Position numbers and translations under genes: made by a program. A stretch of 63,531 bases of DNA, filler included, from Globobulimina sp. (taxonomy: Eukaryota): the NCBI GenBank assembly GCA_003354225.1. It is 49 parts of 49 records of this genome, joined end to end, with 100 filler letters (N's around TTAATTAATTAA, not from the genome) between each part and the next. Parts side by side here need not be neighbours in the genome. Positions count along the whole stretch, not along the records: positions 36,380 to 37,577 come from PIVH01021159.1; 48 more parts are not named here. One strand, given 5' to 3'. Each line of letters starts with the position of its first letter. Within the stretch, counting starts at the first letter, position 1. Of this stretch, positions 1,628 through 45,365 are shown in pieces. The notes below the pieces were generated by a model. The model had not been told where the DNA came from. It saw only the letters and a program-made list of their open reading frames with translations, and made no database searches.

Positions 1628-2500
1628 TTAAGGCAACATCATTCGTTTTGTTTTACGTTTGGTGCAACACCACAAACAACAAAATTTATATTTATAAAAC
1701 AGCCACGGATTATCAAATATTGATAATATTAGCAAAGACATAGTACTTACAATCCACACAATTTTCCATCTATCAAATCTTCCGTAAGTAACTTTAATCA
1801 TTGTCATTATTGCATACATTCCAACTCCTAAAAAAAATAACATTAACAATGCCACCAATATGCCACAGCACCACCATCGTAATTTATATTTTGTAATTGT
1901 AATATGATTATAATGGTAATTATTGTTACTTGTGCCATAATTTATTTGTTCATTTGTTTGTAATGAGATGGATTGCTGTCTATTACGGTTCGCATTGATA
2001 TATGAAACATAACATCGATGACAATATTTACATAAACTGTATAATATATATACAAAATGAAATATCATCAAAGGGATAGATATCCATATTGTATATGTCA
2101 GTATTTCTTCAGTATTATTTACAATAGAACTTATCTCACAAATTATTTGTTTATTATTATTACCAACTATCAAATCTTTGCGATAAAATTGAAATGGTTT
2201 AAATAATAAATACAAACATATCTCAGATATCAATACATTATAAATCAATATCCATCTTATAATTATTATAATGTATATTTATTAGTGAGAAACAGATAAA
2301 AACAATGTGAATACCTTAATAATGTCATGTATATATCCGCCATTATCCAGGATATAAATATTATACATAACAATGCAAACGAATATAATGAAGTAATGGC
2401 AATAGCCATAATACCATACATTTCATACGATTTAACCCAAAATATTAATGTTGTGATTGGTGTCCGATCTTCAGTGCAACCAGAAATTGTATACCAATCC
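1628..2500 (-). CDS. Multi-pass membrane protein, partial
   Basis: Several hydrophobic segments in ORF 1628-2248; the upstream extent is uncertain. Confidence 0.5.
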
Positions 2501-2646
2501 NNNNNNNNNNNNNNNNNNNNNNNNNNNNNNNNNNNNNNNNNNNNTTAATTAATTAANNNNNNNNNNNNNNNNNNNNNNNNNNNNNNNNNNNNNNNNNNNN
2601 AAAAAAAACAAAAAAAACAAAAAAAATATATATATATAGTAAACAC

Positions 2647-3495
2647 TTATGCGCCGTCCAACACTCCTTTAACATTCGCAATTTTATATAATTCTTCCAT
2701 ATAAAAGGTTGAATCACGATCACTTAACAATAATATCGGCGGAGATAGCATCGAGCTACATCTTTGCATCAAAAACAATATCAATAATCCAGCACTTATT
2801 GTGGTGGTAACACTGAACAGGACGTCTTCGGGAAATACTAAATAATCACAAAAATACCAAATAGAACGCCAGAAAGCAACATTTGTAAATCCAAATAACG
2901 AGATTAATAAATATTGCACCAACTTCTTGAAAATAATACAGGCCTTTTTCTCTTCTCTCTCATCATCAAACACATTTCGTAGCGAAGCATATACAGTCTT
3001 CCTATGTTTGTTTGGTACGAATAAAACGAGGATACATGCAATGATTGGCAATGACACCGCGATCGCCATGGAGCACCAGGCGGAGAATAACGTGGTTTCG
3101 GGAATTGTAGCATCGAATGACAACAAATAATCCAACAATACCCAGCATCCCCTCCAATACATAACAACTGCCATTGCGGTCAATGTATGGATACAAATCC
3201 ATTTCAATATATAACAAATGCGGTTGATTTTGGAACGGGAACCTTGCGAGTTCGATTTAGCAGTTACGGGGAGTCTTATTTTATGGATTTGAGGGGATTT
3301 GGGGGCTATGAACGACGGTGACAGATTTATGTCATAATTAAACGAGCTGTTTGTAGCGATAATCGGTAGAGCTGTTTGTGGCGGTAGTAGCGTCAATTCA
3401 GCATCTTGCACATTTGTAGTTTCTACAGTATCTGTCATATGCTTTGGATCAGGCTCCATGCTCTGAAAATGTTGAAAAACTATAAAAGATCGCAT
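2647..3495 (-). CDS. Fuseless-family membrane protein
   Basis: Two repeats, VVMYWRGCWVLLD and VAFWRSIWYFCD (W-R-G-x-W), plus a C-terminal SPP motif. Confidence 0.75.
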   Translation of the reverse strand: MRSFIVFQHFQSMEPDPKHMTDTVETTNVQDAELTLLPPQTALPIIATNSSFNYDINLSPSFIAPKSPQIHKIRLPVTAKSNSQGSRSKINRICYILKWICIHTLTAMAVVMYWRGCWVLLDYLLSFDATIPETTLFSAWCSMAIAVSLPIIACILVLFVPNKHRKTVYASLRNVFDDEREEKKACIIFKKLVQYLLISLFGFTNVAFWRSIWYFCDYLVFPEDVLFSVTTTISAGLLILFLMQRCSSMLSPPILLLSDRDSTFYMEELYKIANVKGVLDGA

Positions 3496-36379: not shown

Positions 36380-36559
36380 TTTAAAAATAATAAAGGTACC
36401 AATAAAAATTAAGCAAATGTTTTAAAAACAATCACGGTACCATTAAATAGTCACCCGCCAGGCTGGTGGGTGAGTCTCCGGAGGAGACCTATTTAATGGT
36501 ACCGTGATTGTTTTTAAAACATTTGCTTAATTTTTAATGGTACCTTTATTATTTTTAAA
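36380..36559. repeat. T-shaped branched hairpin: 71-bp stem capped by two small ears
   Basis: Arms 36380-36450 and 36489-36559 with one mismatch; ears 36451-36473 and 36474-36488. Confidence 0.9.
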
Positions 36560-36766
36560 ACCTTTGTTTAATTTTTAATAATTTTTATACCTTTTAATAT
36601 TTTTAAAACATTTGTTTAATTTTTAATAATTTTTTAATGGTACCGTTCTTATTTTTAAAACTTTTGTATAACCTTTTATTATTTTTAATGGGGAGTTTAT
36701 TATTTTAAAGGTTTTTGTAAAGATTTTAATATTATTCCGTTGTTTTAAACACATTTTCCCTGTGCG

Positions 36767-36906
36767 CCCTCATATATGAGGAGCAAAAGTGTGATTTGTC
36801 CTCATATATGAGGATCAAGTGCTTTTTATCCTCATATATGAGGATCAAGTGCGTTTTATCCTCATATATGAGGAGCGCATGTGTATTCTGTCCTCATATA
36901 TGAGGA
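36767..36906. repeat. Five (T)CCTCATATATGAGGA palindromes at 30-32 bp period
   Basis: Copies at 36767, 36799, 36829, 36859 and 36891. Confidence 0.92.
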
Positions 36907-37022
36907 GTCCATGTGTGTATGATGACTTGTGAAGCTCCTGCTGATGAAGAAGATGCAGGATTTCCCATATAATAGGATTTTTATTGTTAATATTTCATTG
37001 TTGTTGTTCAGTCAAATCTACC

Positions 37023-37577
37023 ATGGCTCCTGGTTTTCAATGTTCACATTGTAGTGTTGTTTACACTAATCTGGGAAATCTCAGGCGTCACTTGAAGAAC
37101 CATGATACAAACTTCTGGTTTTCTTGTCGCCACTGCATTTTTGCTTCCAAACGTGCTGATAATTTAAAAAGGCATTCAGACAAGTATCATTCTACCAATT
37201 ATGGTTCTGTAAATGGTTCAACGCTGCCACCTGCAGTAAATGACAACCCAGCTCATCAACCTATCAACGTACCCATTAAGTCTGCTCAAACAGATGTAGG
37301 CCATACAGATAGTTACAAAGAATTTGACATGTGTTTACAGCTTCCTCACAATTTCATCTATGCCGGAGCTACTCAGAGTGTAAGTTTACTTCATTAACCA
37401 AATGTATTATCTAACTTATGCTACTTTTGTTTCAGGGCAAAACTTCGCTGTTAATGAAAACTTTGGAAAATGCCAAAAAACTTTACAAACCCGTACCTTC
37501 TCAAATCTATTTCCTCCATAATTGTAAGTTGAACTTGTGTTATATGTTACCTATATCAATGATTACTAATGTAAAAA
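37023..37577 (+). CDS. Two C2H2 zinc fingers fused to a Polinton/Maverick-type packaging ATPase; intron 37380-37435, second donor 37524; partial
   Basis: CSHC..H..H and CRHC..H...H; splicing creates Walker A LPHNFIYAGATQS-GKT followed by LYKPVPSQIYFLH. Confidence 0.7.
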
Positions 37578-44376: not shown

Positions 44377-44429
44377 CCTTATTTTTCTAAAGTTTTATCT
44401 TTATTTTTCTAAAAGTGAAATATCAAATT

Positions 44430-45365
44430 ATGGATTACGAAGATTACAAGCAAGTAGTTTCTAACGTTTCTCTTGATATACTCAATAGAAAAGTTGAAAG
44501 TGGTGTATGGAAAGGAAATAAGAATTTTGCACAAGCAATTTATAACAGATTAACAGAGATAATCGCATTAGATGAAAACATTTTTGTATATGCAGTTTCT
44601 GGACAAGGATGGGAAGACTTATGTACGTTTTTGTTCTCTGACTCACTGAAAGTCAGTGAAGAGGATGAATCAAACAGTAGTTCGTGGGAAAATATCGAAA
44701 ATGACAGCTTTAGTTCTCAAGTAGATGATGACGATAACAGCGAACATTGGCGATTAGATAATCAGGAAGGAGGAGCAGAGGAAACAGAAGGCCCTGTCAA
44801 TGTTGATAATCATTTCGACATCAGTGAAGATTATCATATTGAAGTGAAAACACTAAAGACTTCTGGAACAGCTTTCACTTTACGTTTTCGAAATTTGGAC
44901 TCTATTTCTGATATTGTTGAATTAGCTAGAGCAGCATTCGGTAAATTAATTGAACAAGCATTTGAACAAGGTGAACCTACAGATCGCGTTGGCATTGAAA
45001 TTAGACATCCTGGGTTACGCCATCGTCACATTTTTGTTCCATTTTTAAAGCAGAGTGAAATGAGTGTTGAAAAACTTTTAAGAACAATAGAAAGGGTGTT
45101 GCAATCAAACGAAAATTTTAGTTTAGATGACGAAGTGACTGTCATTTTCACAAGAATCAAAACACCAACAGGAAGCGGAACTAGCAGGAATGCATTCAGA
45201 GGAAATTTTAAAATATGGATGGCATCAAAGAGCGGCCCTCACGGTGGTTGTTTCATTCATTTGACAAATGAAGATGAACTGTGCCTGGCGCGCTCTATTG
45301 TTATTGCAGTCGCACGTGCTGAAAAGGACAAATCTGAACAGAAAAAGAAAGAATGGGAACGGATT
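44430..45365 (+). mobile_element. Polinton/Maverick/adintovirus-type protein-primed DNA polymerase B, N-terminal region
   Basis: DRVGI...IERVLQSNENFSLD...PTGSG...NEDELCLARSIVIAVA; polymerase core lies beyond the contig. Confidence 0.7.

Follow-up and report, generated by a model that had tools for sequence, protein, structure and literature searches.

A T-shaped terminal palindrome beside a predicted spliced zinc-finger packaging-ATPase gene in a Globobulimina contig: candidate end of a hairpin-ended virus-like element

Within a window of 63,531 nucleotides from Globobulimina sp. (assembly GCA_003354225.1), one contig was found to join a 180-nt T-shaped terminal palindrome, an array of repeats and the beginning of a predicted spliced gene for a viral-type packaging ATPase with two zinc fingers. 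Our best reading, to which we give about an even chance, is that this contig holds one end, with the first gene, of a new family of hairpin-ended, virus-like mobile elements of the eukaryote nucleus. A conserved family with a T-hairpin beside a packaging ATPase would show a new combination of replication end and packaging module, in which a motor carries a DNA-reading domain of its own, matched by repeats close to the genome end, and would offer a testable model of how this class of packaging motor recognises its own genome. The family is no isolated case, having been found in at least 30 metagenome contigs across several repositories. The coordinates 36380-37577 correspond exactly to one whole contig of 1198 bp (PIVH01021159.1). 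Given that the window is an assembly of 49 unrelated contigs of ~1.2 kb, joined by N44-TTAATTAATTAA-N44 spacers, the sequence adjoining this contig in the window is unrelated to the element. A blastn search of the 1198-bp contig against the other window contigs found none related (best foreign match 31 nt, E 0.058); among 10 ORFs scanned in the other 48 contigs, a viral hallmark was absent and the matches comprised only RNase_H, a sulfotransferase and a weak DOMON; Rfam gave 0 matches over the whole window.

The T-shaped palindrome (36380-36559, no strand assigned) begins at base 1 of the contig. Its stem arms, at 36380-36450 and 36489-36559, are 71 nt long with a single A/A mismatch, and the 38 nt between them are filled entirely by two small palindromes, namely cross-arm 1 at 36451-36473 (10 bp with a 3-nt loop) and cross-arm 2 at 36474-36488 (6 bp with a 3-nt loop, GTCTCC-GGA-GGAGAC). 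Two tandem ~41-nt units, with GGTACC in each, make up the stem. Folded as DNA, the hairpin reached -85.4 kcal/mol, compared with -15.9 +/- 2.8 for shuffled sequences, none of 200 of which did as well (z -24.8), and the 38-nt top folded alone yielded a z of -4.0, with 1 of 200 shuffles as good. L001, an independent metagenome contig of 3017 bp from a different collection (54% amino-acid identity), likewise opens with a T-hairpin at base 1, its stem being unrelated in sequence; the two stems are unalignable, one being AT-rich and the other GC-rich. The shape is nevertheless common to both, with stems of 71 bp (window) and 72 bp (L001), each consisting of two tandem units, and small arms of 10+6 bp in the window vs. 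9+7 bp in L001. The stems carry one mismatch in the window and none in L001 despite a synonymous divergence of ~1 between the two genes, as would be expected from arm-to-arm copying. Both contigs end exactly at the palindrome base. Judged from this comparison, the T-hairpin is genuine and its structure is conserved.

The order of parts in L001 is that of the window (T-hairpin, AT-rich region, palindromes, TATA, ATG and two intron positions), with a hairpin-to-ATG distance of 432 nt vs. 463 nt in the window. The AT-rich subterminal region (36560-36745, + strand, 17% G+C) comprises degenerate copies of the stem unit of ~41-52 nt each; five stem-like copies were found at a spacing of 41-52 nt, 62-78% like the reference copy, and a block at ~36672-36736 is roughly 80% conserved vs. 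L001. Beyond it lie five exact CCTCATATATGAGG palindromes (36768-36905, no strand assigned), starting at 36768, 36800, 36830, 36860 and 36892 and thus spaced 32, 30, 30 and 32 nt from start to start, with TCCTCATATATGAGGA as the extended form. Chance would give 0.02 copies, and five were reached in 0 of 100 shuffles. The CCTCATATATGAGG core is present three times in L001 and, as deduced from read-through peptides, three times upstream of the relative P0182, and it is kept in members with exon 1 just 39-56% identical; a doubly changed palindrome, CCACATATATGTGG, is carried by one contig of sequencing run X1. Searches of IMG/VR viral contigs with two palindrome patterns, and of prokaryote genome contigs with the palindrome pattern, each gave 0 matches. 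Further downstream, a TATA-like box CCCATATAATAGG at 36964-36976 (+ strand), read directly and aligned with L001, is situated ~50 nt upstream of the ATG inside a promoter/5'-leader block conserved with L001, and we regard this region as a putative promoter. The branched hairpin, the AT-rich degenerate repeats and the five periodic palindromes had all been claimed in a sequence-only reading of this DNA, and each of them was borne out by the arms, nested palindromes, fold, repeat copies and shuffles described above.

The gene opens with exon 1 (37023-37379, + strand, ATG at 37023), which encodes 119 aa. Two C2H2 fingers (residues 5-27 and 33-56) are followed by a linker of variable sequence, and then by the first ATPase strand with half of the Walker A motif (NFIYAGATQS). 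The C-x2-C-x12-H-x3-4-H zinc-finger pattern is present, and the Pfam profiles zf-C2H2_4 (30.6 bits, cut-off 27) and zf-C2H2 (26.4 bits, cut-off 25.2) each matched two stretches. The Cys/His columns of the fingers are invariant in six aligned sequences with one exception, the final His of finger 1, which L001 and P0179 lack; across family members, finger 2 (KR.DNLKRH..KYH) is also conserved. A predicted 56-nt, phase 0 intron 1 (37380-37435, + strand; GTAAGT...CTAAC...TTTCAG) splits the P-loop, with the same position and length in L001 at ~75% identity. Exon 2 (37436-37523, + strand; 29 codons plus 1 nt, GKTSLLMKTLENAKKLYKPVPSQIYFLHN) opens with GKTSLL, and Walker A is completed across the predicted intron as NFIYAGATQS/GKTSLL, i.e. 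GATQS/GKT. This splice junction is supported by the finding that five of five family exon-1 frames (the window and four relatives) lose sense at the same AGA(T/S)QS/GTAAGT point, and by the intronless relative P0043, in which AGATQSGKT is read uninterrupted. The 5' part of a predicted intron 2 (GTAAGT..., 37524-37577, + strand) runs to the end of the contig; an X1 contig with its loose end at 37575 continues with TGTTTAG followed by GTTTTCAAGAAAAT, where exon 3 begins (FQEN) as it does in L001, and in the relatives P0009, P0017, P0018 and P0031, which begin with MKTLEN, the reading frame continues through intron 2. The GT-AG intron borders and the intron positions are conserved, and conserved spliceosomal introns suggest a nuclear gene. 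With dN/dS vs. L001 of 0.28 in exon 1 and 0.13 in exon 2, the gene is by this measure under purifying selection.

The window contig ends before exon 3, and the Walker B motif (QTLIIIDD) and downstream core were observed in the third exon supplied by L001. The ATPase core of ~220 aa comprises Walker A, Walker B and a C-terminal PYGY(V/L)L(V/I)D..TP..R motif, and over 24 family members the columns DD, RH, H, N, Q, G, D and TP are invariant. Searching with L001 exon 3 returned 2471 relatives at E<1e-3. This exon, a query without the Walker A exons, matched Pfam Pox_A32 with E 6.8e-4 and 19.6 bits vs. a cut-off of 22.8; among 68 relatives, 41 had a match to the same profile at E<=1e-3 and 3 had one to Adeno_IVa2, with the Pox_A32 cut-off being passed by four of ten relatives (P0045, 29.5; P0048, 25.8; P0054, 25.5; P0092, 28.3). 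The fold was tested on P0043, the intronless ZnF-ATPase relative that is 39% identical to L001 exon 3, rather than on the window protein. Its AF2 model has a core pLDDT above 90, and the 10 best PDB matches were all to the STIV/STIV2 B204 packaging ATPase (4r2h, 4kft and others; E 3.9e-6 to 2.4e-5, TM on target 0.58-0.67), an archaeal virus protein without fingers for which, at 11-14% identity, the likeness is one of fold only. The best BFVD viral matches of the model were adenovirus IVa2, A32-like ATPases, mavirus, Sputnik V3 and an adintovirus FtsK-like protein. Judged by these profiles and the modelled fold, we assign the ATPase to the viral A32/IVa2/Polinton packaging type and not to a cellular P-loop family. 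The earlier claims of a Walker A split by an intron, a fusion to two C2H2 fingers and a Polinton-type packaging ATPase thus hold up in the family alignments, the finger profiles and the P0043 model; by profile and fold, the relatives match viral packaging ATPases and not cellular P-loop families. A sequence search of PDB chains with L001 exon 3 returned chance-level matches only (best E 0.1, NDUFV2), and nothing below E 0.24 was found in PHROGs. The same exon also drew a Pfam 2Fe-2S_thioredx match (E 1.5e-4, below cut-off), which we took as chance since it covers the same stretch as the chance-level NDUFV2 matches.

Until now, A32/IVa2-type ATPases have been associated with viruses and Polinton-like elements whose ends are plain inverted repeats and whose replication is protein-primed, and T-shaped terminal hairpins with parvoviruses, which package by the Rep helicase. 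By profile and fold, the ATPase described here falls in the same family as those of Polintons/Mavericks, adintoviruses ('PacK'), virophages and the NCLDV A32-like (FtsK-HerA) group. In contrast to Polinton-type ATPases, however, it has two C2H2 fingers fused N-terminally and two conserved predicted spliceosomal introns, and its gene, instead of being enclosed by plain TIRs, is found ~450 nt away from a T-shaped terminal palindrome. In the available text of PMC10748475, known Polintons have plain TIRs of 100-1500 bp and target-site duplications, whereas the end visible here, one end being seen, is a self-complementary T-palindrome. According to PMC11071296, some adintoviruses and a clam adomavirus have separate zinc-finger 'Ziftr' and PacK genes; in its available text, this source reports neither a Ziftr-PacK fusion nor a hairpin.

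With its terminal palindrome, repeats, five palindromes and promoter, the layout here is adenovirus-like, the binding of a protein to the array being putative in our case. The adenovirus left end comprises a terminal repeat, a few hundred bp of IVa2-bound packaging motifs and then the first promoter. In adenovirus, however, the ITR is a simple inverted repeat carrying a terminal protein whereas the end here is a hairpin, IVa2 lacks the C2H2 fingers that are fused here, and the first gene in our case is the ATPase gene itself. As for parvoviruses and densoviruses, their terminal hairpins are similar to ours in having a three-way junction, a long stem, two arms of 6-10 bp, loops of 3-4 nt and perfect arm complementarity (near-perfect in the window), so that the end seen here is a terminal T/Y hairpin of the type found in the Parvoviridae, a family with linear ssDNA genomes of 4-6 kb. 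The AAV ITR is T-shaped. Its arms are designated B-B' and C-C' in the available text of PMC5511163, and densovirus ITRs are Y-shaped according to that of PMC3820778. Unlike parvovirus hairpins, the stem here is longer (71-72 bp) and consists of two tandem units; in addition, the first gene of parvoviruses is the HUH-SF3 NS1/Rep gene, while here it is a packaging ATPase of the double-jelly-roll virus world. A precedent for mixed parvovirus-type and Polinton-type modules is provided by the Bidnaviridae (available text of PMC4061559 and PMC11071296). In bidna-like viruses, which we liken to our element by description only, the Polinton-derived gene is PolB rather than an ATPase.

Putting these features together, we postulate that the 180-nt T-palindrome may serve as the telomere of the element, staying perfect by repeated arm-to-arm copying during hairpin-primed, parvovirus-style replication or resolution. 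Adjoining this proposed telomere, the degenerate stem-unit copies and the CCTCATATATGAGG array lie upstream of a putative TATA-type promoter, which would drive the twice-spliced gene for an A32/IVa2/Polinton-type packaging ATPase with two N-terminal C2H2 fingers. We propose that the CCTCATATATGAGG array may comprise binding sites for the element's own zinc-finger ATPase and may act as a packaging signal and/or promoter element. By recognising these palindromes, the fingers could enable the motor to find its own genome end, in analogy to adenovirus IVa2 at the packaging repeats beside the left ITR, and they may also autoregulate the promoter. The other genes of the element (replication, capsid) would be placed outside the sequence available.

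The sequence-only reading went beyond the individual features and took the contig as the end of an undescribed linear Polinton-related element with hairpin ends. In favor of this are the viral type of the ATPase, the finger fusion, the conserved T-hairpin and the literature, where we found no description joining such a T-hairpin to this ATPase (supplements could list ZnF-ATPase fusions or terminal structures). The kinship of the whole element with Polintons and its linear, hairpin-ended form stand less firmly than the features themselves. A contig would likewise stop where a multi-copy insertion ends, or at the foot of a long perfect palindrome, and against our best reading, neither a replication nor a capsid gene is present within the window contig or L001; no ORF for a protein-primed PolB, a retrovirus-like integrase, a double or single jelly-roll capsid protein or an adenain-like protease was found within the 1.2 kb of the window contig plus the 3.0 kb of L001.

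These considerations lead to an explanation that we lean against but hold to be a real possibility, namely that the contig is the end of a multi-copy integrated element, either a DNA transposon or an endogenous Polinton/adintovirus-like provirus, for which no free hairpin-ended molecule is needed. The palindrome would then be a terminal repeat, and contigs would stop at diverging flanks or where the palindrome breaks the assembly graph. The copies in run X1 fit this view, as 101 contigs match the stretch at 88-100% identity, with at least two gene variants ~10% apart at similar depth and with rearranged joints in the repeat region; copies diverged by ~10% at similar depth resemble a genomic repeat family more than a single infection. 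The conserved introns, as those of a nuclear gene, and distant relatives in animal genomes are also in keeping with it, P0151 being situated on a contig of 880 kb from Actinostola and most of the nearest Atlas clusters being from Mollusca or Nematoda. The ~30 close relatives, all metagenome contigs, are on contigs of 575-3017 bp, lengths that fit low-coverage host DNA as well as they fit a small genome. On the other hand, perfect 71-72-bp arms despite complete stem turnover would be unexpected for passive chromosomal copies, and known Polintons, as noted, have plain TIRs. Moreover, 1 of the 101 X1 records extends past an end of the stretch, and among the loose ends listed (22 more exist) one lies past the right end and none to the left of 36380, with the X1 contigs (k=31) being unable to cross the stem. 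Even if the contig is only an integrated transposon end, the terminal structure would still be unusual for a eukaryotic element.

Returning to the reading of a hairpin-ended virus-like family, we tentatively put forward a more far-reaching scenario, which we consider rather doubtful: the contig may belong to an as yet unknown eukaryotic lineage of linear DNA viruses that combines T-hairpin telomeres, replicated by a rolling-hairpin mode, with a double-jelly-roll packaging motor. Such a lineage, possibly small or multipartite, would have a motor that acquired sequence-reading fingers and cognate palindromic packaging sites beside the telomere, and its expression would proceed from spliced nuclear genes. 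If true, this would constitute a chimera across two viral realms. Counting against our best reading, IMG/VR viral contigs held no confirmed relative: the exon-1 protein gave 3 pattern matches and the family alignment A2 gave 99, with 0 confirmed in either case, and the narrower alignment A3 gave 28 pattern matches with 0 confirmed among prokaryote genome contigs. A protein word search with window residues 58-119, covering longer proteins only, produced six candidates, none of which scored.

An unlikely explanation is that we are looking at a genome of a few kb, or a segment of a multipartite one, from a parvovirus/bidnavirus-like linear ssDNA virus, or else at a helper-dependent satellite, with T-hairpin ends and one or two genes per molecule, the ZnF-ATPase being alone on this one. 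None of the 30 close relatives is on a contig longer than 3017 bp and the more distant ones are on contigs of 1441-4598 bp, although metagenome contigs are normally short. The summed word depth in X1, 288 at the hairpin top vs. ~30-55 in the gene, would fit shared termini, such depths not being copy numbers. A32-type ATPases have, to our knowledge, so far been tied to double-jelly-roll capsid viruses and not to parvo-like ones, which argues against a small parvo-like genome, as does the absence of any HUH-SF3 NS1/Rep or single jelly-roll VP gene within the 3 kb of L001. L001 also runs 1.07 kb past its gene (1944-3017) with no convincing ORF (longest 115 aa) and no second hairpin, two pairs of direct repeats being the sole repeats there. 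Promoter-like motifs were observed downstream in L001. A multi-segment precedent is available in Vesanto virus of Drosophila, a bidna-like virus with segments of 3.3-5.8 kb sharing terminal repeats (PMC8363768, available text), and the word 'ATPase' has 0 occurrences in the main text of that paper.

A very unlikely explanation is that of an ordinary, possibly domesticated, cellular ZnF-ATPase gene with a chance palindrome upstream and with CCTCATATATGAGG bound by a host transcription factor. Purifying selection, the conserved introns and the promoter-like motifs in L001 would all suit a cellular gene, and the conservation of the palindrome core in divergent members is what a host-factor site would display. 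However, many diverged copies within one run, the ending of both contigs exactly at the palindrome base and a protein family made up of virion-packaging motors all speak against it, and both the shape of the 180-nt T-palindrome and its distance from the gene have been preserved despite the replacement of its sequence. That the hairpin is an assembly or amplification artefact, e.g. an inverted chimera, is scarcely credible, even though it sits at the very start of a contig in a highly fragmented assembly and the sequence is present in one of three runs of the sample (runs X2 and X3 share next to no words with it, with no match among X2 contigs and an AT-rich partial match only in X3), as an artefactual inverted duplication would not give rise to a nested pair of small palindromes occupying the entire top, the independent L001 shows this T-shape in another sequence, and the hairpin is covered by the public contigs of run X1.

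The contig at 36380-37577, exactly one 1198-bp contig of the window, most likely shows one end of a virus-like mobile element of a eukaryote, with the element's first gene beside it; such elements would form a family. It starts with a 180-nt terminal palindrome whose 71-nt arms (36380-36450 and 36489-36559) differ by one mismatch, and the 38 nt between them comprise two abutting small palindromes with zero unpaired junction bases; folded as single-stranded DNA, the whole adopts a T shape, with a 71-bp stem, a 10-bp arm and a 6-bp arm, each arm closed by a 3-nt loop. The fold energy was -85.4 kcal/mol vs. -15.9 +/- 2.8 for shuffled sequences (z -24.8, with 0 of 200 as good), and the 38-nt top folded alone gave a z of -4.0 (1 of 200 shuffles as good), in line with the branched hairpin proposed in the sequence-only reading. 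The stem is composed of two tandem units of ~41 nt, and degenerate copies of this unit extend over ~200 nt of the AT-rich region that follows (17% G+C). Beyond this region lie five exact CCTCATATATGAGG palindromes at a spacing of 30-32 nt (chance expectation 0.02; five reached in 0 of 100 shuffles), and a TATA-like box (36964-36976) stands 5' of the ATG at 37023; the AT-rich degenerate repeats and the five periodic palindromes of the earlier reading were thus both recovered.

The gene downstream has the finger fusion and the predicted spliced structure that had been read from the sequence. Exon 1 encodes 119 residues from the ATG at 37023, with two C2H2 fingers, both above Pfam cut-offs, and ends in ..NFIYAGATQS; after a predicted intron of 56 nt (GTAAGT..CTAAC..TTTCAG), exon 2 opens with GKTSLL, completing the Walker A motif. 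A second predicted intron (GTAAGT) leaves the contig end, and one record from X1, a sequencing run of the source sample, extends past 37575 to the start of exon 3 (..TGTTTAG followed by GTTTTCAAGAAAAT..), as in the related metagenome contig L001. Among 6 candidates, 4 were relatives of exon 1, and all 4 end in ...AGA(T/S)QS and then VS, the dipeptide that GTAAGT encodes when translation runs on into the intron.

When metagenome contigs were scanned with exon 1, a single relative emerged, L001 (PJEL010048575.1, 3017 bp), with 54% identity over all 119 residues and matching anatomy. Its T-palindrome runs from base 1, with arms (1-72 and 113-184) that are 100% complementary and a 40-nt top of 9-bp and 7-bp arms (-142.8 kcal/mol, z -25.3), followed in order by an AT-rich region, three GCCCTCATATATGAGGGC copies, a TATA-like box and the ATG, which lies 432 nt from the hairpin vs. 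463 nt in the subject contig. Both predicted intron positions are identical, and intron 1 is 56 nt in each. The two stems are unalignable, one being AT-rich and the other GC-rich, but the hairpin shape is retained in both, including the stem of two tandem units. Perfect arms in both lineages (save the one mismatch), together with complete turnover of the stem, are as expected from repeated arm-to-arm copying, which we infer to have occurred. The genes are separated by ~1 substitution per synonymous site, with dN/dS of 0.28 in exon 1 and 0.13 in exon 2; identity is 75-80% in intron 1, in the leader, in the palindromes and over a ~65-nt block of the AT-rich region, whereas it is only ~45% at synonymous sites. 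Read-through upstream of the relative P0182 (39% identity, BLASTP) holds the peptides ASYMRI, ILIYEDY and ILIYEDRR, which are those given by the palindromes of the subject contig in two frames, so that, from peptides and not DNA, a third family member very probably carries three palindrome copies. We regard as established a T-palindrome of conserved shape with a conserved palindrome array and promoter block, and, at the level of sequence, a zinc finger-ATPase gene spliced at predicted introns, under purifying selection and belonging to the packaging-ATPase superfamily.

As side observations, finger 1 lacks its second histidine in L001 (617-979; ..RHLTSLN) and P0179 (..RHLRSLN) and has it in the subject contig, P0181 and P0182; finger 2 is complete in every one of them and strongly conserved. 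The smaller cross-arm is a CTCC-N3-GGAG palindrome in both hairpins (window 36474-36488; L001 95-111), with GGGTGAGT nearby; the order of GGGTGAGT and then this arm near the junction is a weak commonality of the two, and the arm resembles a shortened CCTCA-TATA-TGAGG site within stems that have no common sequence. Past its gene, L001 harbors direct-repeat pairs of 61 nt (397-nt spacing) and 44 nt (568-nt spacing), as well as the promoter-like motifs TGACGTCA, CACGTG and the near-palindrome AAATGGCCGCCATTT.

Exon 3 of L001 (1180-1943), comprising Walker B (LIIIDD), PYGYVLVDL..TP..LRIR and a tail of variable, charged sequence ending in RPYI, matched Pfam Pox_A32 by itself at E 6.8e-4 (19.6 bits vs. 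a cut-off of 22.8). Of the 661 candidates from a word-indexed search with this exon, 30 scored as relatives at E<=0.01, and their contigs, which come from four repositories, measure 575-3017 bp; in four of these relatives (P0009, P0017, P0018, P0031), the frame opens within exon 2 and continues across an in-frame intron 2, suggesting that the second intron position is conserved too. Exhaustive HMMER returned 2471 proteins at E<1e-3 (527 at E<1e-10, 12 at E<1e-30), mostly ATPases of ~220 aa, and a Pfam scan of relatives found Pox_A32 in 41 of 68 (best E 1.2e-10) and Adeno_IVa2 in 3 of 68. In the 337-residue relative P0043, a single uninterrupted frame spans two C2H2 fingers plus the ATPase, with AGATQSGKT exactly at the intron 1 site of the subject contig. 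Modelled with AlphaFold (mean pLDDT 77; >90 in the ATPase core), P0043 came closest, of all solved structures, to B204, the packaging ATPase of STIV/STIV2 (top 10 chains, E 3.9e-6 to 2.4e-5), and, among viral models, to adenovirus IVa2, A32-like ATPases and the mavirus FtsK-HerA ATPase, with Sputnik V3 and an FtsK-like protein of an adintovirus also among the best. Some ESM-Atlas look-alikes fall in clusters with the automatic name 'Poxvirus A32 protein / Zinc finger C2H2', in which Mollusca predominate, suggesting that the fusion is present, unremarked, in annotated genomes.

The ATPase resembles in working, and groups with, packaging motors of the A32/IVa2/Polinton type. We surmise that the T-palindrome may serve as a telomere kept up by hairpin-primed copying, and that the fingers may bind the CCTCATATATGAGG sites, whereby the motor would recognise its own genome end, by analogy with adenovirus IVa2, which acts at left-end packaging repeats; replication and capsid genes would be carried by the remainder of the element. 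The linear, hairpin-ended, Polinton-related element of the sequence-only reading was borne out as to the packaging-type ATPase and the T-hairpin, but the plain Polinton TIRs (PMC10748475) were not matched. The element is not classifiable as a Polinton because the visible end, the sole terminal feature open to comparison, is a T-palindrome and not a plain TIR, and any defining genes would lie outside the visible sequence, nor as a parvovirus, because the likeness is confined to the hairpin and a gene other than NS1 comes first. In some adintoviruses and a clam adomavirus, PMC11071296 reports the zinc fingers ('Ziftr') and the FtsK/HerA protein ('PacK') as genes of their own, whereas fingers and ATPase are fused here. 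Among the papers listed and the passages covered, we found none that joins a T-shaped or rolling-hairpin terminus to an ATPase of Polinton type, and none that reports the zinc finger-ATPase fusion. On present evidence, the element is best read as virus-like with a Polinton-type packaging module; that it represents a new cross-realm virus lineage is doubtful. Against the virus-like reading stand: 1) no replication or capsid gene was seen in the subject contig or L001; 2) the 1.07 kb past the L001 gene (1944-3017) had no convincing ORF or second hairpin; 3) nothing related was found among IMG/VR viral contigs; 4) diverged copies together in X1 suit a genomic repeat family.

The subject contig was present in 1 of 3 listed runs of one sample (share 0.62). 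In X1, 101 Logan contigs matched it (10 at >=99%, 32 at 95-99%, 48 at 90-95% and 11 at <90%), with at least two gene variants ~10% apart at similar depth and several rearranged joints within the repeat region; the palindrome of one variant copy (loose end, window 36483) is CCACATATATGTGG, with both half-sites altered vs. CCTCATATATGAGG, and could mark a subfamily with altered recognition specificity. If the contig instead marks where an integrated, multi-copy transposon or provirus ends, which we entertain as a tentative possibility, this copy diversity would be accounted for, as would the introns and the shortness of the contigs; the perfect arms would be less well explained. A small genome, or a single segment of a multipartite parvo/bidna-like virus, is unlikely in our estimate; it has in its favor that 0 of the 30 close relatives lie on a contig >3 kb, that X1 word depth at the hairpin top, a weak measure, is several times that of the gene, and the precedent of the 12-segment Vesanto virus (PMC8363768). 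Matches of the ATPase were of Pox_A32, IVa2 and B204 type and did not group it with cellular P-loop families, the outcome of which the earlier reading had warned; a cellular gene with a palindrome upstream we deem quite improbable, and the independent second locus, L001, makes an assembly artefact very unlikely indeed. Of the 101 X1 records, 1 crosses an end of the subject contig; the loose end of this kind that is listed lies on the right side, and none of those listed lies left of the hairpin. Because Logan contigs (k=31) are unable to cross a 71-bp perfect repeat and 22 further loose ends exist besides those listed, the missing left flank is no evidence for a molecule end.

The window consists of 49 separate contigs of 1197-1200 bp each, sorted by descending size and joined by N44-TTAATTAATTAA-N44 spacers, an order that is biologically meaningless. 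Since the joining is artificial and blastn of the subject contig against the other 48 gave chance matches only (best 31 nt, E 0.058), the flanking sequence is unrelated to it. G+C per contig ranges from 27% to 44%, so several organisms may be represented, and in the remaining contigs sequence resembling that of an AT-rich eukaryote with few introns seems to be mixed with other material. At 44391-45365 (+), a 325-aa ORF leaving its contig, with an acidic N-terminal and a conserved-looking C-terminal part, had no match in a Pfam scan; that it is a mobile-element protein is our unsupported suspicion. The contig at 33783-34981, with the top G+C of the window (44%) and a 241-aa ORF unlike those of the AT-rich eukaryote-like contigs, is possibly bacterial. 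An ORF of 399 aa, with an RNase H domain (Pfam E 7e-9), fills the entire contig at 57147-58343 (-) and probably belongs to a retroelement.
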